Part shown: positions 1-54,850 of the stretch, one piece after another
How the letters are laid out: every line of letters starts with the position of its first letter
How positions within the stretch are numbered: position 1 is the first letter of the stretch
Assembly: GCF_013167455.1 (NCBI RefSeq)
Contig: NZ_CP038328.1
DNA length: 64,000 nucleotides
Source: Escherichia coli O157:H7
GTDB lineage: Bacteria > Pseudomonadota > Gammaproteobacteria > Enterobacterales > Enterobacteriaceae
Direction: 5' to 3' (one strand)
Notes under the pieces: generated by a model
What the model was told of the DNA's origin: nothing
What the model saw: only the letters and a program-made list of their open reading frames with translations
The model's database searches: none
Program-made: the position numbers and the translations under genes

Positions 1-341
1 CATCTTCCGTAATTCCGGTAGATGGTTTATGTGTGCGTGTCGGGGCATTGCGCTGCCACAGCCAGGCATTCACTATTAAATTGAAAAAAGATGTGTCGAT
101 TCCGACCGTGGAAGAACTGCTGGCTGCGCACAATCCGTGGGCGAAAGTCGTTCCGAACGATCGGGAAATCACTATGCGTGAGCTAACCCCAGCTGCCGTT
201 ACCGGCACGCTGACCACGCCGGTAGGCCGCCTGCGTAAGCTGAATATGGGACCAGAGTTCCTGTCAGCCTTTACCGTGGGCGACCAGCTGCTGTGGGGGG
301 CCGCGGAGCCGCTGCGTCGGATGCTTCGTCAACTGGCGTAA
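1..341 (+). CDS. asd: aspartate-semialdehyde dehydrogenase, 3' portion (5' end lies outside window)
   Basis: Open frame runs in from the window edge and ends ...[17 protein letters not shown], recognised as the Asd C-terminus; asd immediately upstream of glgB matches E. coli synteny. Confidence 0.85.
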
Positions 342-359
342 TCTTTATTCATTAAATCT

Positions 360-382
360 GGGGCGCGATGCCGCCCCTGTTA
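360..382 (+). terminator. putative asd terminator hairpin (GGGGCG-loop-CGCCCC), weak U-tract
   Basis: 6-bp GC stem seen directly after the asd stop; downstream T-tract is poor, so rho-independence is uncertain. Confidence 0.3.
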
Positions 383-613
383 GTGCGTAATACAGGAGTA
401 AGCGCAGATGTTTCATGATTTACCGGGAGTTAAATAGAGCATTGGCTATTCTTTAAGGGTGGCTGAATACATGAGTATTCACAGCCTTACCTGAAGTGAG
501 GACGACGCAGAGAGGATGCACAGAGTGCTGCGCCGTTCAGGTCAAAAAAATGTCACAACCAGAAGTCAAAAATCCAATTGGATGGGGTGACACAATAAAA
601 CAGGAAGACAAGC

Positions 614-2800
614 ATGTCCGATCGTATCGATAGAGACGTGATTAACGCGCTAATTGCAGGCCATTTTGCGGATCCTTTTTCCGTACTGGGAATGCATAAA
701 ACCACCGCGGGACTGGAAGTCCGTGCCCTTTTACCCGACGCTACCGATGTGTGGGTGATTGAACCGAAAACCGGGCGCAAACTCGCAAAACTGGAGTGTC
801 TCGACTCACGGGGATTCTTTAGTGGCGTCATTCCGCGACGTAAGAATTTTTTCCGCTATCAGTTGGCTGTTGTCTGGCATGGGCAGCAAAACCTGATTGA
901 TGATCCTTACCGTTTTGGTCCGCTAATCCAGGAAATGGATGCCTGGCTATTATCTGAAGGTACTCACCTGCGCCCGTATGAAACTTTAGGCGCGCATGCA
1001 GATACTATGGATGGCGTCACAGGTACGCGTTTCTCTGTCTGGGCTCCAAACGCCCGTCGGGTCTCGGTGGTTGGGCAATTCAACTACTGGGACGGTCGCC
1101 GTCACCCGATGCGCCTGCGTAAAGAGAGCGGCATCTGGGAACTGTTTATCCCTGGGGCGCATAACGGTCAGCTCTATAAATACGAGATGATTGATGCCAA
1201 TGGCAACTTGCGTCTGAAGTCCGACCCTTATGCCTTCGAAGCGCAAATGCGCCCGGAAACCGCGTCTCTTATTTGCGGGCTGCCGGAAAAGGTTGTACAG
1301 ACTGAAGAGCGCAAAAAAGCGAATCAGTTTGATGCGCCAATCTCTATTTATGAAGTTCACCTGGGCTCCTGGCGTCGCCACACCGACAACAATTTCTGGT
1401 TGAGCTACCGCGAGCTGGCCGATCAACTGGTGCCTTATGCTAAATGGATGGGCTTTACCCACCTCGAACTACTGCCCCTTAACGAGCATCCCTTCGATGG
1501 CAGTTGGGGTTATCAGCCAACCGGCCTGTATGCACCAACCCGCCGTTTTGGTACTCGCGACGACTTCCGTTATTTCATTGATGCTGCACACGCAGCTGGT
1601 CTGAACGTGATTCTCGACTGGGTGCCAGGCCACTTCCCGACTGATGACTTTGCGCTTGCCGAATTTGATGGTACGAACTTGTATGAACACAGCGATCCGC
1701 GCGAAGGCTATCATCAGGACTGGAACACGCTGATTTACAACTATGGTCGCCGTGAAGTCAGTAACTTCCTCGTCGGTAACGCGCTTTACTGGATTGAACG
1801 TTTTGGTATTGATGCGCTGCGCGTCGATGCGGTGGCGTCGATGATTTATCGTGACTACAGCCGTAAAGAGGGGGAGTGGATCCCGAACGAATTTGGCGGG
1901 CGCGAGAATCTTGAAGCGATTGAATTCTTGCGTAATACCAACCGTATTCTTGGTGAGCAGGTTTCCGGTGCGGTGACAATGGCTGAGGAGTCTACCGATT
2001 TCCCTGGCGTTTCTCGTCCGCAGGATATGGGCGGTCTGGGCTTCTGGTACAAGTGGAACCTCGGCTGGATGCATGACACCCTGGACTACATGAAGCTCGA
2101 CCCGATTTATCGTCAGTATCATCACGATAAACTGACCTTCGGGATGCTCTACAACTACACTGAAAACTTCGTCCTGCCGTTGTCGCATGATGAAGTGGTC
2201 CACGGTAAAAAATCGATTCTCGACCGCATGCCGGGCGACGCATGGCAGAAATTCGCTAACCTGCGCGCTTACTATGGCTGGATGTGGGCATTTCCGGGCA
2301 AGAAACTGCTGTTCATGGGGAACGAATTTGCCCAGGGCCGCGAGTGGAACCATGACGCCAGCCTCGACTGGCATCTGTTGGAAGGCGGCGATAACTGGCA
2401 CCACGGTGTCCAGCGTCTGGTGCGCGATCTGAACCTCACCTACCGCCACCATAAAGCGATGCATGAACTGGATTTTGACCCGTACGGCTTTGAATGGCTG
2501 GTGGTGGATGACAAAGAACGCTCGGTGCTGATCTTTGTGCGTCGCGATAAAGAGGGTAACGAAATCATCGTTGCCAGTAACTTTACGCCGGTGCCGCGTC
2601 ATGATTATCGCTTCGGCATTAATCAGCCAGGCAAATGGCGTGAGATCCTCAATACCGATTCCATGCACTATCACGGCAGTAATGCAGGTAATGGCGGCAC
2701 GGTACACAGCGATGAGATTGCCAGCCACGGTCGTCAGCATTCACTAAGCCTGACGCTACCACCGCTGGCCACTATCTGGCTGGTTCGGGAGGCAGAATGA
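614..2800 (+). CDS. glgB: 1,4-alpha-glucan branching enzyme
   Basis: 728-aa ORF; N-terminus [22 protein letters not shown] and GH13 motifs recognised; first gene of glgBX. Confidence 0.97.
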
Positions 2801-4770
2801 CACAACTCGCCATTGGCAAACCCGCTCCCCTCGGCGCGCATTACGACGGTCAGGGCGTCAACTTCACACTTTTCTCCGCTCATGCCGAGCGGGTAGAACT
2901 GTGTGTCTTTGACGCCAATGGCCAGGAACATCGCTATGACTTGCCAGGGCACAGTGGCGACATTTGGCACGGTTATCTGCCGGATGCGCGCCCGGGTTTG
3001 CGTTATGGTTATCGCGTTCATGGCCCCTGGCAACCCGCCGAGGGGCATCGCTTTAACCCGGCGAAGTTGTTGATTGATCCTTGCGCGCGGCAAATTGACG
3101 GGGAGTTTAAAGATAACCCGCTGCTGCACGCCGGTCATAATGAACCTGACTATCGCGACAACGCCGCCATTGCGCCGAAATGCGTAGTGGTGGTTGATCA
3201 CTATGACTGGGAAGATGATGCCCCGCCGCGCACGCCGTGGGGCAGCACCATCATTTATGAAGCCCATGTTAAAGGATTAACGTACCTGCACCCGGAGATC
3301 CCGGTCGAGATCCGTGGCACTTATAAAGCCCTCGGGCATCCGGTGATGATCAACTATTTGAAACAATTGGGCATTACCGCGCTGGAACTGCTGCCAGTGG
3401 CGCAGTTTGCCAGTGAACCACGTCTGCAACGCATGGGGCTAAGTAACTACTGGGGTTACAACCCGGTGGCGATGTTTGCGCTGCATCCGGCGTATGCCTG
3501 CTCGCCAGAAACGGCGCTGCATGAGTTTCGCGATGCAATCAAAGCACTGCATAAAGCGGGTATCGAAGTCATTCTTGATATCGTGCTCAACCATAGTGCG
3601 GAACTGGACCTCGACGGCCCGTTATTCTCGCTGCGTGGGATCGACAACCGTAGCTATTATTGGATAAGAGAAGACGGCGATTATCACAACTGGACCGGTT
3701 GTGGCAACACGCTCAATTTGAGTCACCCGGCGGTGGTGGATTATGCCAGCGCCTGCCTGCGTTATTGGGTAGAAACCTGCCACGTCGATGGTTTCCGCTT
3801 TGATCTGGCGGCAGTCATGGGCCGTACGCCAGAGTTCCGTCAGGATGCGCCGTTGTTTACCGCTATCCAGAACTGCCCGGTGCTCTCGCAGGTGAAGTTA
3901 ATTGCTGAACCGTGGGATATCGCTCCTGGTGGTTATCAGGTGGGAAATTTCCCGCCGCTGTTTGCCGAGTGGAACGATCATTTCCGCGATGCTGCCCGTC
4001 GTTTCTGGCTACATTATGATTTGCCTCTGGGGGCGTTTGCCGGGCGTTTTGCTGCCTCCAGCGATGTTTTTAAACGTAATGGTCGTCTGCCGAGTGCCGC
4101 GATTAATCTCGTCACCGCGCATGACGGTTTTACGCTTCGCGACTGCGTTTGTTTCAACCATAAACACAATGAAGCAAACGGAGAAGAAAATCGCGACGGG
4201 ACCAACAACAATTACAGTAACAATCATGGTAAAGAAGGGGTAGGCGGTACCCTTGACCTGGTTGAACGGCGGCGCGACAGCATTCACGCCCTGTTAACAA
4301 CGTTGTTGCTCTCCCAGGGTACGCCGATGTTACTGGCCGGTGACGAACATGGTCACAGCCAGCATGGCAATAACAATGCCTACTGTCAGGATAACCAATT
4401 AACCTGGTTGGACTGGTCGCAGGCAAGCAGTGGTTTAACCGCATTTACCGCCGCGTTAATCCATCTGCGCAAGCGTATTCCCGCTTTGGTGGAGAATCGC
4501 TGGTGGGAAGAAGGCGACGGCAATGTCCGTTGGCTAAATCGATATGCTCAACCTTTAAGCACGGATGAGTGGCAAAACGGGCCGAAACAGCTGCAAATTC
4601 TGCTCTCGGATCGCTTTTTGATCGCAATTAACGCCACGCTTGAGGTAACAGAGATTGTTTTACCTGCTGGGGAGTGGCACGCCATTCCCCCATTCGCTGG
4701 AGAGGATAACCCAGTGATTACGGCTGTCTGGCAGGGACCTGCACACGGATTGTGTGTGTTCCAGAGATGA
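2797..4770 (+). CDS. glgX: glycogen debranching enzyme
   Basis: 657-aa [26 protein letters not shown]...; ATGA start/stop overlap with glgB. Confidence 0.97.
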
Positions 4771-13235: not shown

Positions 13236-13288
13236 TTCCCTGAATCAAAAAGTAGGTCAGATTGTTGACAACGTGGCGCTTTGTTCAT

Positions 13289-13387
13289 GCCTGATGCGGC
13301 GTGAACGCCTTATCAGGCCTACAAAATCATGCAAATTCAACATATTGCATAAACCACGTAGGCCTGATAAGCGTAGCGCATCAGGCA
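13289..13387. repeat. BIME: two REP elements in inverted orientation
   Basis: gcctgatgcggcgtgaacgccttatcaggcctac (13289-13322) and gtaggcctgataagcgtagcgcatcaggca (13358-13387) match the enterobacterial REP consensus. Confidence 0.85.
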
Positions 13388-13449
13388 ATTTTGTGTTTGT
13401 CATCAGTCTCAGGCCAGATTGAAATCTGACCTGATCACCTTACGTTAAT

Positions 13450-51572: not shown

Positions 51573-52133
51573 ATGAGCAAATCATTACAAAAACCCACCA
51601 TTCTGAATGTTGAAACTGTAGCCCGTTCCCGACTGTTTACCGTCGAGAGCGTGGATCTAGAGTTCAGCAATGGCGTGCGGCGTGTTTATGAACGAATGCG
51701 TCCAACCAACCGGGAAGCAGTGATGATTGTGCCGATTGTGGACGATCACCTGATCCTGATCCGCGAATATGCAGTGGGAACTGAATCCTACGAATTAGGT
51801 TTTTCGAAAGGATTAATTGATCCGGGTGAAAGCGTCTTCGAAGCCGCTAACCGCGAGCTAAAAGAAGAGGTTGGATTTGGTGCGAACGATCTGACTTTTT
51901 TGAAGAAGCTCAGCATGGCACCGTCTTACTTTTCCAGCAAAATGAATATCGTGGTAGCGCAAGATCTCTACCCGGAATCGCTGGAAGGCGATGAGCCAGA
52001 GCCGCTACCACAGGTGCGCTGGCCGCTGGCGCATATGATGGATTTGCTGGAAGACCCTGACTTCAACGAAGCGCGTAATGTCAGCGCGCTGTTCCTCGTG
52101 CGCGAATGGTTGAAAGGGCAGGGGCGAGTGTAA
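51573..52133 (+). CDS. nudE: ADP-sugar/ADP compounds Nudix hydrolase
   Basis: 186-aa ORF, MSKSLQKPTILNVETVARSRLFTVESVDLEFSNGVRRVYERM...; Nudix box GLIDPGESVFEAANRELKEEVG. Confidence 0.95.
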   Translation: MSKSLQKPTILNVETVARSRLFTVESVDLEFSNGVRRVYERMRPTNREAVMIVPIVDDHLILIREYAVGTESYELGFSKGLIDPGESVFEAANRELKEEVGFGANDLTFLKKLSMAPSYFSSKMNIVVAQDLYPESLEGDEPEPLPQVRWPLAHMMDLLEDPDFNEARNVSALFLVREWLKGQGRV

Positions 52134-52146
52134 ATGCGTGAAGTTT

Positions 52147-52243
52147 GCCTGATGCACAATGCTTATCAGGCTTATGGGGTTCCTGCAATATATTGAGTTT
52201 TCACGATTTTGTTAGCCGGATAACGCGTTCACCCGTATCCGGC
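52147..52243. repeat. two REP-like palindromes downstream of nudE
   Basis: gcctgatgcacaatgcttatcaggc (52147-52171) and gccggataacgcgttcacccgtatccggc (52215-52243). Confidence 0.7.
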
Positions 52244-52271
52244 ATAAACAAGTGCACTTTGTCAGCAAACT

Positions 52272-52297
52272 GAAAAGGCGCCGAAGCGCCTTTTTAA
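52272..52297. terminator. bidirectional rho-independent terminator (nudE / mrcA)
   Basis: aaaaa-GGCGC-cgaa-GCGCC-ttttt, immediately after the mrcA stop on the minus strand. Confidence 0.8.
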
Positions 52298-54850
52298 TCA
52301 GAACAATTCCTGTGCCTCGCCATTATCGATAATGGTCGTTCCCACCTCGTGCACCGCCTGTTGTGTCGGCTGCGTACCTTCGATGAAATACTCTTCGCGG
52401 CTGTTGCCACCATTAGCTAACTGCCCGGTGCTGCGATCGATATTCACCGTCACAATACCCGGCGGCGGCGTCAGCGGCTGCTCCGGCACACCTTCAAGAA
52501 CGGCTTTCATATAAGCGTCCCATGCAGGCTGGGCACTCTTGGCACCGCCTTCGTAACCTGAAATCTGATCTTTAATCGCTCCGGAAGCCGTTGTATGACC
52601 GAGATTACGACGGTGATCATCAAAGCCAATCCAGACCGAGGTCACAACGCCCGGTCCGTAACCCGAGAACCACGCATCTTTCGAACTGTTAGTGGTACCG
52701 GTTTTCCCGCCGATATCGCGACGCTGCAAATCACGACCTGCACGCCAGCCGGTACCCTGCCAGCCTGGCTCACCAAAGATATTGGTGTTCAAAGCACTCT
52801 TAATCAGGAATGCCAGCGGAGTGTTGATGACGTGCGGTGCGTACTCCTGCGCGCCAGTCTTCGCCACTAACGCCTGATTTGCCTGCTCCAGCTGCGGCAT
52901 TGGTACAGAAACATTCTGCTGCTCGCGGGAGATAGCGACATCTTCAACATCGTTATTTTCCAGCACGTTCGATTTCTGCGTATCACCGTAAATCACCGGA
53001 ATATCGCATTCCGGGCAGGCTACTTTCGGTTTCGCTTCGAAAATCACGCCGCCCTGATCGTTTTCAATTTTGCTGATAAACCACGGGTCCACCAGGAAGC
53101 CGCCGTTCGCCATGACCGCGTAGCCGCGCGCCACCTGCATTGGGGTGAAGGACGCTGAACCCAGCGCCAGCGATTCGGTGTGGACAATGTTTTGCGCCGG
53201 GAAGCCGAAGCGTTGCAGATATTCTGCAGCGTAGTCGACGCCCATCGCCCGCATTGCGCGTACCATCACCACGTTTTTCGACTGACCCAGCCCCTGACGT
53301 AAGCGAATTGGACCGGCATACTGCGGTGGTGAGTTTTTCGGCTGCCAGTCAGAACCGGCACCTGCGTCCCAGCGAGAAATTGGCACATCGTTCAACATAC
53401 TTGCCAGCGTCAGACCTTTATCCATCGCCGCGGTGTAGAGGAACGGTTTGATGTTGGAACCCACCTGACGCAGTGCCTGGGTGGCGCGGTTAAACTTGCT
53501 CTGATTGAAATCAAAGCCACCGACCAGCGCCATAACGGCACCATTTTGCGGATTGATCGACACCAGTGCCGAGTTCACTTCCGGCACTTGTGCCAGCCAC
53601 CATGCATCGCCAACCTGACGAACCCAGATTTGCTGACCCGTTTGCAGAACATCGGTCACTTTACGCGGCGTCGGTCCCTGCTGAGTATCCGAACGGTAAG
53701 GACGCGCCCAGCGAACGCCTTCCATACTCAATGCGACGGTCGACCCGTCCGCCAGCATTGCCGTCGCTTCCTGAGGATTGGCGCTGGTGACTGCGGCAGG
53801 CAGCAGCGGACCATAGGTCGGCAGCGCCTTCAGCGTATCGGTAATCTTGTTGTTATCCCACGCCGACTCGCCCACTTTCCACAGCACATTTGCCGGGCCG
53901 CGATAGCCGTGGCGCATGTCGTAGTCCAGCACGTTATTACGTACCGCCTGCTGCGCGGCCTGCTGCACTTTGCGGGTGATGGTGGTGTAAATGCGATAAC
54001 CGTCTTCATAGGCACTTTCGCCATAACGGTTATACATCTCCTGGCGCACCATTTCGCTCAGGTACGGCGCAGAAAAAGCAATCTCCGGCGCGTGATAGTT
54101 AGCGTTAATCGCCTCAGTGCGTGTCTGATCGAACTGTTGCTGGGTGATATATCCTTCATCCAGCATCCGCGATAGCACGACGTTACGCCGCGCGACGGCA
54201 CGATCCATCGAGTAGAGCGGGTTGAAGGTGGAAGGCGCTTTCGGCAGCCCGGCTATCACCGCCATTTCGTTCAGCGTCAGTTGGTCGACCGTTTTTCCGA
54301 AATAGACTTGTGCCGCAGCACCGACACCATAGGCGCGGTAACCAAGGTAAATCTTGTTCAGATAAAGCTCGAGGATCTCGTCTTTCGTCAGCAACTGTTC
54401 AATGCGAATCGCGAGGAAGACTTCCTTAATCTTACGCATCAGCGTGCGTTCTGGACTGAGGAAGAAGTTTCTCGCCAGCTGCTGGGTAATGGTACTTGCC
54501 CCTTGTGACGCGTGGCCGGAGAACAGCGCCACACTTGCCGCACGGAAGATCCCCACCGGGTCAACGCCGTGATGCTCGTAGAAGCGGCTGTCTTCCGTCG
54601 CGATAAAGGCTTTCACCATCTCCGGCGGGATTTGATCCAACGTAACCGGAATACGACGTTTCTCACCGTATTGAGCAATCAGCTCGCCATCGGCGCTGTA
54701 AATCTGCATCGGAATTTGCAGGCGAACATCTTTTAATGTCGCCACATCCGGCAGTTGTGGCTCGATGTAGCGGTATAGGCCATAAATCGAGCCTGCTCCC
54801 AGCAGAATGCAACAGACTGCAAGGATCAAAAAATACTTTACGAACTTCAC
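52298..54850 (-). CDS. mrcA: penicillin-binding protein 1A (bifunctional transglycosylase/transpeptidase)
   Basis: ORF track gives an ATG at 54874 (858 aa); the K-12-type 850-aa protein MKFVKYFLILAVCCILLGAGSIYGLYRY... corresponds to a GTG start at 54850. Class A PBP motifs present. Confidence 0.93.
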   Translation of the reverse strand: MKFVKYFLILAVCCILLGAGSIYGLYRYIEPQLPDVATLKDVRLQIPMQIYSADGELIAQYGEKRRIPVTLDQIPPEMVKAFIATEDSRFYEHHGVDPVGIFRAASVALFSGHASQGASTITQQLARNFFLSPERTLMRKIKEVFLAIRIEQLLTKDEILELYLNKIYLGYRAYGVGAAAQVYFGKTVDQLTLNEMAVIAGLPKAPSTFNPLYSMDRAVARRNVVLSRMLDEGYITQQQFDQTRTEAINANYHAPEIAFSAPYLSEMVRQEMYNRYGESAYEDGYRIYTTITRKVQQAAQQAVRNNVLDYDMRHGYRGPANVLWKVGESAWDNNKITDTLKALPTYGPLLPAAVTSANPQEATAMLADGSTVALSMEGVRWARPYRSDTQQGPTPRKVTDVLQTGQQIWVRQVGDAWWLAQVPEVNSALVSINPQNGAVMALVGGFDFNQSKFNRATQALRQVGSNIKPFLYTAAMDKGLTLASMLNDVPISRWDAGAGSDWQPKNSPPQYAGPIRLRQGLGQSKNVVMVRAMRAMGVDYAAEYLQRFGFPAQNIVHTESLALGSASFTPMQVARGYAVMANGGFLVDPWFISKIENDQGGVIFEAKPKVACPECDIPVIYGDTQKSNVLENNDVEDVAISREQQNVSVPMPQLEQANQALVAKTGAQEYAPHVINTPLAFLIKSALNTNIFGEPGWQGTGWRAGRDLQRRDIGGKTGTTNSSKDAWFSGYGPGVVTSVWIGFDDHRRNLGHTTASGAIKDQISGYEGGAKSAQPAWDAYMKAVLEGVPEQPLTPPPGIVTVNIDRSTGQLANGGNSREEYFIEGTQPTQQAVHEVGTTIIDNGEAQELF

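Follow-up and report, generated by a model that had tools for sequence, protein, structure and literature searches.

The nudE-mrcA spacer of Escherichia coli O157:H7 as a probable composite of a decaying BIME-1 repeat and a predicted bidirectional terminator

What occupies the 164 bases (52134-52297) that separate the convergent genes nudE (plus strand) and mrcA (minus strand) in E. coli O157:H7, and which of the hairpins packed between the two stop codons would bring the converging transcripts to an end? We addressed this question in a 64-kb window, the whole stretch of O157:H7 DNA that was analysed. The nudE stop codon ends at 52133 and that of mrcA begins at 52298, so these coordinates are exactly those of the intergenic spacer; the PGAP annotation of an identical O157:H7 record names the two products as an ADP compounds hydrolase and PBP1a, respectively. 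A stretch of 231 bases around the spacer is 100% identical to several O157:H7 chromosomes. When 5,426 complete E. coli genomes are compared, 5,425 match these 231 bases at 80-100% identity and at one place each, and 5,422 do so with a coverage of at least 80%.

The spacer contains three inverted repeats, with arms GCCTGAT and ATCAGGC at 52147-52171, GCCGGATA and TATCCGGC at 52215-52243, and AAAAGGCGC and GCGCCTTTT at 52273-52294. On both strands, all three are predicted to fold into hairpins that are more stable than dinucleotide shuffles (z between -2.9 and -5.0, with 0-3 of 200 shuffles reaching the stability of the native sequence). A preliminary description of this DNA had reported a spacer of dense secondary structure between convergent nudE and mrcA, holding two REP-like palindromes and a bidirectional terminator; the limits of the spacer prove to be exact, and the shuffling bears out its dense structure. 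We propose that the spacer is probably a composite of two unrelated things, a BIME-1 element that comprises the first two hairpins and a terminator hairpin that is the third (Table 1).

Table 1. Features of the nudE-mrcA region, in window coordinates; strand is given where it applies.
Feature	Position	Strand	Remarks
nudE CDS	51573..52133	+	186 aa; TAA stop at 52131-52133; ORF list and PGAP annotation of a 100% identical O157:H7 record
Equivalent of the in vitro Rho-binding fragment (MG1655 3525466-3525626)	52096..52255	- (mrcA-sense)	From an earlier in vitro screen, as tabulated by Harris et al. 2026 (supplement)
Whole BIME-1, equivalent of MG1655 REP251 (3525479-3525576)	52146..52242		Supplement of Harris et al. 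2026, mapped through the O157/K-12 alignment
z1-type REP, inverted (iREP), TGCCTGATGCACAATGCTTATCAGGCTTAT	52146..52175	+	25/30 identical to the z1 consensus of other copies
BIME-1 L linker, about 35 nt	52176..52210		31/35 identical to the linker consensus
IHF-like core in the linker, ACTCAATATATTG	52186..52198	-	8/9 specified positions of WATCAANNNNTTR
y-type REP, GTTAGCCGGATAACGCGTTCAC-CCGTATCCGGCA	52211..52244	+	30/35 identical to the y consensus
Stretch from y REP to terminator, ATAAACAAGTGCACTTTGTCAGCAAACTG	52245..52272		Conserved within Escherichia
Symmetric hairpin AAAA-GGCGC-CGAA-GCGCC-TTTTT, predicted bidirectional intrinsic terminator	52273..52294		Perfect 9-bp inverted repeat
mrcA (PBP1a) CDS	52298..54850	-	TGA stop at 52298-52300; ORF list and annotation; end coordinate presumes the annotated 850-aa form

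The results of a REP consensus scan and of comparison with other copies support the REP identity that the preliminary description gave to the two palindromes. Both match their respective consensus, y or z1, and within the 64-kb window the REP core pattern GCCTGATGC-N-GCTTATCAGGC is matched twice and the pattern GCCGGATAA-N-ATCCGGC once, where 0.00 matches are expected for either. The segment 52146-52244 is collinear, with no rearrangement, with an element at 13288-13391 of the same window, between glpD and a hypothetical gene, and likewise with elements of MG1655 in yaaX-yaaA and yhfZ-trpS, giving three other z1-L-y composites in all. The order common to the aligned composites is a GCCTGATGC...GCTTATCAGGCCTAC unit, a linker of around 35 nt centred on TGCAATATATTGA, and a GTAGGCCGGATAAGGCGTTCACGCCGCATCCGGCA unit, and the 105-nt element has a median of at least 31 similar places per E. 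coli genome. The locus is also catalogued: the supplementary table of Harris et al. (2026, bioRxiv 10.64898/2026.03.23.713779) lists REP251 with the entry 'Convergent, 3525576-3525479, nudE, mrcA'. The RefSeq record of MG1655 has no REP feature at nudE-mrcA; this annotation gap is uninformative, because the classic REP site at yaaX-yaaA, taken as a control, is equally unannotated.

BIME-1 elements have been defined as a z1 and a y REP in inverse orientation, present as a single copy and joined by an L linker that is long and conserved and in many cases contains a site for IHF (Ton-Hoang et al., PMC3333891). The element at nudE-mrcA resembles the BIME-1 (alias RIP or RIB) of E. coli in all of these respects, with one z1 and one y unit opposed across a long L linker that has an IHF-like core; it is a single copy at its locus, it is extragenic, lying between the two stop codons of convergent genes, and it is collinear with other copies. 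From these patterns we identify the two palindromes as the z1 and y arms of one BIME-1, and not as independent REPs. Compared with the canonical form, the nudE-mrcA copy differs in that its GTAG and CTAC motifs are mutated, in four to five differences per segment, and in a linker that scores below the Rfam gathering threshold. The first 10-15 nt or so of the stretch that leads from the y REP to the terminator are common to other BIME-1 copies and are therefore probably a flanking motif of the repeat. As an element, REP251 is an ordinary feature that has already been described.

TnpA-REP requires a conserved GTAG on the 5' side of the foot of the palindrome, which in an inverted unit reads CTAC (PMC3333891), and both foot motifs are mutated in O157 as well as in K-12, from GTAG to GTTAG in the y unit and from CTAC to TTAT in z1. 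This predicts that the nudE-mrcA copy would no longer be a substrate of TnpA-REP, and we read the loss of the foot motifs as the apparent decay of a true member of the REP family, not as a sign of non-membership. The y unit of O157 has one nucleotide fewer in its loop than that of K-12, and its upper stem is unpaired; the y hairpin is predicted at -14.7 kcal/mol (z = -2.9), compared with -19.4 kcal/mol for a canonical copy.

To place these changes within the species, we compared nine E. coli lineages, which were picked down an identity ranking and are not a random sample; among them, the mean pairwise difference is 0.096 in z1, 0.177 in the linker and 0.149 in y, compared with 0.013-0.019 in the flanking coding sequences and 0.010 in the third hairpin. 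The BIME segments are in this set 5-15 times more polymorphic than the flanking genes, and within E. coli no part of the BIME is better conserved than the z1 stem.

Beyond E. coli, nudE loci were collected from 80 species genomes, and the spacer was analysed in 70, in which nudE and mrcA are convergent. Only in Escherichia does this spacer hold the z1-L-y element; none of the other genera surveyed has it. Its state varies within the genus: Escherichia sp. E1V33 has a canonical BIME-1 with GTAG and CTAC intact, L013, the strain that stands for E. coli in the species collection, has a partly deleted one, in E. albertii nothing but the right arm of the y unit is left, and E. whittamii has, in place of the entire spacer, a 234-aa ORF that matches no Pfam family. 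This distribution across Escherichia and the other genera places the insertion of BIME-1 in the Escherichia ancestor and indicates that the element has been dispensable in several lineages. At present its most likely status is that of a passenger, largely dispensable but not without side effects. Two observations may tell against the passenger view, namely that the BIME is matched in 5,425 of the 5,426 complete E. coli genomes and that its z1 stem and IHF-like core are conserved.

The y REP has also been used as a landing site by a mobile element. An annotated IS1397 of 1432 bp interrupts the spacer in two of the 5,426 genomes, those of the natural isolates 09A19CPO009 and 95-3322. The site of insertion is the y-REP loop, GCCGGATAACGCGT-TCAC-CCGCATCCGG, in which TCAC is duplicated as a 4-bp target site duplication, and the ends of the element read at the junctions are TGAACTG(A/C)ACCCCAAA. 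IS1397 is reported to insert specifically into the REPs of BIMEs (PMC1525189; PMC3333891). Measured against other IS1397 target sites in the palindromic units of BIMEs there is nothing unusual about this one, and insertion at nudE-mrcA is rare. The y REP is still recognized by IS1397 as a target, and the general remark in the preliminary description that REPs occasionally serve as IS targets is true of this very copy. An IS1397-like copy lies in the entD-fepA BIME spacer of the one genome examined, where its flanks, consisting of linker and half-REP, are about 91% identical; 2,287 genomes have an equally similar IS1397 junction.

The third hairpin lies 3 nt from the mrcA stop codon and has a predicted stability of -15.5 kcal/mol on the plus strand and -13.8 kcal/mol on the minus strand (z = -5.0 and -3.6). 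RNA transcribed in the mrcA direction would have a UUCG loop and a UUUUCAGUUU tail, and RNA transcribed in the nudE direction a CGAA loop and a UUUUUAAU tail. Of the segments compared within E. coli it has the lowest diversity, with one of its 22 columns variable among the nine lineages. A hairpin of the form A(4-7)-GGCGC-N4-GCGCC-T(5-7), 7-9 nt from the mrcA stop codon, is seen in Escherichia, E. albertii, many Citrobacter, Salmonella and Pluralibacter, and close variants of it in Yokenella, Trabulsiella, Klebsiella, Raoultella and Kosakonia; in total, the same or an equivalent hairpin is found in 36 of the 70 species spacers, spread over at least ten genera. Across genera it is the loop that changes (CGAA, CGCA, CGGA, CTCA, CTAA, CGTG, TTTC and others), while the stem is maintained. 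Since the hairpin is conserved across genera and makes up nearly the whole of the shortest spacers, which at 26-45 nt are essentially the hairpin alone, we regard it as the ancestral part of the spacer.

Comparison with bidirectional intrinsic terminators gives insight into the likely function of this hairpin. It shares with them a GC-rich 5-bp stem, a tetraloop and flanking A- and T-tracts, which together give a hairpin and U-run on each strand, as well as a position directly after a stop codon and conservation across genera with a variable loop. It differs from them in tracts that are shorter in E. coli than in its relatives, in having no called Term-seq 3' end in the published tables discussed below, and in the presence of Rho-dependent events on both sides. 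The tracts are A4-5 and T5 in E. coli and A6-7 and T6-7 in its relatives, and given this shortening the hairpin may be a weak terminator in E. coli. A simple terminator scan of the window did not flag the third hairpin; by our reading of the scan rule, the base-paired A- and T-tracts are taken as part of the stem, so that no T-run follows it. We take the miss to be a limit of the scanner for symmetric terminators and not evidence against the hairpin, which we conclude is the predicted primary, and ancestral, bidirectional intrinsic terminator of the locus. Of the bidirectional terminator in the preliminary description, the structure thus stands, as a symmetric, conserved hairpin with A/T tracts, and the function is a prediction from sequence and conservation only.

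Other genera have REP types of their own in the nudE-mrcA spacer, and the A/T-flanked hairpin is missing from it in Citrobacter youngae, C. portucalensis, C. gillenii and Pseudocitrobacter. These observations raise the possibility that the spacer is a recurrent landing site for REPs, entered independently in Escherichia, Citrobacter, Enterobacter/Lelliottia, Pseudocitrobacter, Superficieibacter and Pseudescherichia, that a REP pair replaced the ancestral terminator in the three Citrobacter species and in Pseudocitrobacter, and that in E. coli the terminator has lost part of its A/T tracts next to the BIME. We put this forward tentatively, as an extension that we consider unlikely.

A specific alternative gives the BIME-1 an effect on nudE. 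REPs within 15 nt of a stop codon have been reported to stall terminating ribosomes and to trigger trans-translation (Liang, Rudd and Deutscher 2015, as quoted in PMC5082802). The z1 stem at 52147-52171 starts 13 nt past the nudE stop codon, so a terminating ribosome would collide with the hairpin, and the z1 REP could in this way lower the synthesis of NudE through stalling, tmRNA trans-translation and mRNA decay. This 13-nt distance, taken straight from the sequence, recurs in Escherichia sp. E1V33 and L013, and in other genera too REPs are found close to the nudE stop codon, at 8-11 nt; however, REPs are often near stop codons merely because spacers are short. The z1 stem is the part of the BIME that E. 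coli conserves best, which counts in favor of stalling. Against it, the RNA hairpin that the stem forms is modest (-11.9 kcal/mol, z = -3.7), and E. albertii, E. whittamii and most genera have no REP here, so that there is no conserved requirement; the arrangement is not conserved beyond Escherichia. Stalling at z1 is a plausible alternative that we nevertheless hold to be unlikely.

Published data on 3' ends and on Rho bear on which of the hairpins would stop transcription. Two supplementary tabs of Adams et al. (2021; PMC7815308), which are thresholded lists, contain no Term-seq 3' end in MG1655 3525300-3525599. The study does report termination sensitive to bicyclomycin on the nudE-sense strand, in a region at 3524915 that lies about 508 nt inside mrcA; read counts were 165 upstream and 22 downstream in the untreated sample and 589 and 774 with bicyclomycin, and the Rho score is 9.9 (PMC7815308). 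This strong Rho-dependent signal downstream of the hairpin shows that some nudE-sense transcription either runs through the hairpin or has its start farther on. For the opposite strand, the supplement of Harris et al. (2026, bioRxiv 10.64898/2026.03.23.713779) lists an in vitro Rho-binding fragment over REP251 that was found both with and without NusG, and REP251 is included among the 78 unique REPs that carry in vitro Rho-binding sequences from an earlier screen (bioRxiv 10.64898/2026.03.23.713779). In window coordinates the fragment begins about 18 nt beyond the hairpin; the C/G ratio on the mrcA-sense strand of this segment is 1.48, and both of the untranslated RNAs that arise by read-through have a skew of C over G. 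The Rho region seen in vivo and the fragment bound in vitro are on opposite strands and about 500 nt apart. Taken together, these published data show the involvement of Rho, which we interpret as a backstop in both directions.

With Rho binding over REP251, the REP hairpins themselves might be the main bidirectional stop and stabilizer, serving as pause sites, Rho-dependent terminators and exonuclease barriers and leaving the A/T-flanked hairpin to act mainly for mrcA. The correlation of REPs between convergent genes with higher expression of both genes (bioRxiv 10.64898/2026.03.23.713779) is in line with this, as is the inclusion of REP251 among the Rho-binding REPs; the same preprint places 78 REPs inside previously identified bidirectional terminators, but REP251 is not among the rows listed for these in the part of the supplement that we consulted. 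The spacers of C. youngae, C. portucalensis, C. gillenii and Pseudocitrobacter, which consist of a REP pair with no A/T-flanked hairpin, suggest that REP pairs can take over; in E. coli, however, it is the hairpin that is conserved and the BIME that evolves fast, and the y REP has lost its upper stem. The tables of Adams et al. (2021) call no 3' ends at the REPs either. REP251 resembles the REP-associated partial Rho-dependent terminators and mRNA stabilizers (REP325, yjdMN) in having REP hairpins in a 3'UTR and a Rho-binding fragment that overlaps the REP, but REP325 is a 12-hairpin BIME-2-type array in an operon, whereas REP251, a BIME-1, has two hairpins, lies between convergent genes and is adjoined by a separate, predicted intrinsic terminator. 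We consider it quite unlikely that the REP hairpins are the main stop.

The linker of the BIME-1 was also compared with known RNA families and with the IHF consensus. Rfam RF02751, the ES036 (CssrF) sRNA family, matches the nudE-mrcA linker with 30.4 bits (E = 0.0012), below its gathering score of 37.6, and matches two canonical BIME-1 copies above that score, with 39.3 and 38.7 bits; Rfam contains no REP family. Because both of the canonical copies tested match too, the ES036 match reflects membership of the repeat and not a specific gene, and the Rfam family is in effect a model of the BIME-1 L linker. The IHF-like core lies at the position homologous to an 8/9 match in the canonical copy (13335-13347), and CTGCAATNTATTGA around it is nearly invariant in the nine E. 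coli lineages. On its own an 8/9 match to the IHF consensus is weak, since the window has one for about every 1,900 positions. The linker probably binds IHF.

It is extremely improbable that the spacer encodes a product of its own, either an sRNA like ES036 (CssrF) or naRNA4, to which the sub-threshold Rfam matches of 30.4 and 17.5 bits point, or the 42-aa product of a 42-codon TTG ORF that runs across the BIME (52145-52273): the sRNA gene was rejected because the ES036 match is explained by the repeat family and the naRNA4 score is far under its gathering score of 59.5, the ORF was rejected because it sits inside a dispersed repeat and its frame does not survive the 1-nt indel that separates O157 from K-12 or the further indels among E. 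coli lineages, the sole promoter-like site, in the linker, was rejected as being at chance level (1 versus 1.5 expected), and the tables of Adams et al. (2021) call no 3' end in the spacer.

We therefore return to the composite of terminator and passenger, and consider it likely that the spacer is explained as a whole by an ancestral bidirectional terminator together with a decaying BIME-1 passenger that has an IHF-like linker and a y unit that IS1397 can target, and with Rho as a backup for termination. According to this model, the symmetric GC hairpin at the mrcA stop codon would end both convergent mRNAs, with the hairpin and its U-tract forming on either transcript and releasing RNA polymerase. 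The BIME-1 would have entered between the nudE stop codon and the terminator in the Escherichia ancestor, and would have been decaying since. On the nudE mRNA, both REP hairpins would be located in the 3'UTR, upstream of the terminator. Read-through from mrcA past a weakened terminator would produce untranslated RNA over the BIME and antisense to nudE, which may serve as a zone of Rho entry and backup termination, and the REP251 RNA hairpins with their untranslated flanks may provide a further backstop, Rho-dependent or structural. The data show the identity of the element, its family membership, age and decay, the conservation of the terminator hairpin, the insertion of IS1397 and, in published work, the binding of Rho in vitro; in vivo termination at the hairpin, occupancy of the linker by IHF and any influence on the expression of nudE or mrcA are inferred.

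Taken by itself the locus is of low importance: E. coli K-12 has 355 annotated REP loci, of which REP251 is a single one, and the third hairpin has the form of a textbook terminator. The locus does hold two cautions for annotation, that the Rfam 'ES036 sRNA' family is in effect the BIME-1 linker, and that simple terminator scanners can miss symmetric bidirectional terminators. The spacer is a clean example of a conserved functional part, the predicted terminator, beside a fast-decaying repeat, the BIME-1; the insertion of the repeat can be dated to the Escherichia ancestor, and its decay, deletion, replacement and re-use by IS1397 are visible in public genomes. The repeated colonization of the spacer by REPs across genera, in places with loss of the ancestral terminator, is an only mildly interesting extension of this. 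If REP pairs do take over termination, the orthologous spacer would be a natural replacement series, and BIMEs would be able to substitute functionally for intrinsic terminators between convergent genes.

Within E. coli, the BIME segments of the nudE-mrcA spacer (window 52146-52244; together REP251, a diverged BIME-1) are 5-15 times as diverse as the adjoining coding sequence, with a mean pairwise difference of up to 0.18. In some lineages the substitutions are grouped in clusters. Two candidate sources of this diversity are hypermutability of the segments and conversion from other copies. REP251 has also served as a target for IS1397 (1432 bp), which lies inside the loop of its y REP in 2 of 5,426 complete E. 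coli genomes, flanked by a target duplication of TCAC. A similar element of the IS3 family, found at another locus, is bordered by linker-plus-half-REP sequence with about 91% identity to the nudE-mrcA junction; a junction of equal similarity is present in 2,287 genomes, at a coverage of at least 80% and counted by similarity, not by locus.

Coordinates of the features described (L-numbers are loci from other genomes, with local positions)
Feature	Location	Strand	Context
Second BIME-1, canonical (z1, L linker, y)	window 13288-13391	-	between glpD and a hypothetical gene
RF02751 (ES036/CssrF) matches on L linkers	window 13323-13365; L004 594-636; window 52168-52210
Spacers with other REP types	L020, L023, L024, L031, L035, L036, L039, L053, L057, L081 and others		after nudE stop
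nudE-internal 3' end	window ~51658-51661	+	MG1655 3526064 and 3526061, - strand
Rho termination region	window ~52806	+	MG1655 3524915, - strand
IS1397 in REP251	L005 4134-5565; L095		strains 09A19CPO009 (L005) and 95-3322 (L095)
IS1397-like IS3-family element	L094 2501-3930		strain 2012C-4502, between entD and fepA
ORF in place of spacer, E. whittamii	L016 2062-2777	mrcA strand	234 aa
Upstream extension of mrcA ORF	window 54851-54874	-	8 codons

The spacer itself varies in content and length across Escherichia. An E. coli representative strain from the species collection (L013) has a canonical z1 unit but has lost parts of its linker and left y arm, in a spacer of 133 nt (after position 2061), and E. 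albertii (L022) keeps the right arm alone of the y REP in a spacer of 69 nt (after position 2061). In E. whittamii the entire spacer, BIME and terminator included, is replaced by an ORF lying 9 nt from the stop of nudE and 2 nt from that of mrcA, for which a Pfam search gave no match. Other REP types occupy the spacer in Citrobacter, Enterobacter, Lelliottia, Pseudocitrobacter, Superficieibacter and Pseudescherichia, where REP colonisation represents independent events; in several of these spacers the A/T-flanked hairpin terminator is not left. The spacers of Citrobacter koseri (L042, 415 nt) and a Klebsiella MAG (L092, 665 nt) are unusually long, possibly through insertions or a truncated mrcA.

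The MG1655 data of Adams et al. (2021; PMC7815308) place a strong ORF-internal Term-seq 3' end 85 nt into nudE under two conditions, and a bicyclomycin-sensitive Rho termination region (Rho score 9.9) antisense to mrcA. The position of the latter implies that transcription, either nudE-sense or antisense, extends about 500 nt into mrcA. The mechanically called mrcA ORF is 858 aa long, starting upstream of the annotated 850-aa start.

The second BIME-1 of the window also lies between a convergent gene pair, like nudE and mrcA. Its L linker scores 39.3 bits, above the gathering score of the Rfam 'sRNA' family ES036. This family matches the L linker in all BIME-1 copies examined, the REP251 match falling below the gathering score; ES036 effectively models a dispersed repeat, not a single sRNA gene.
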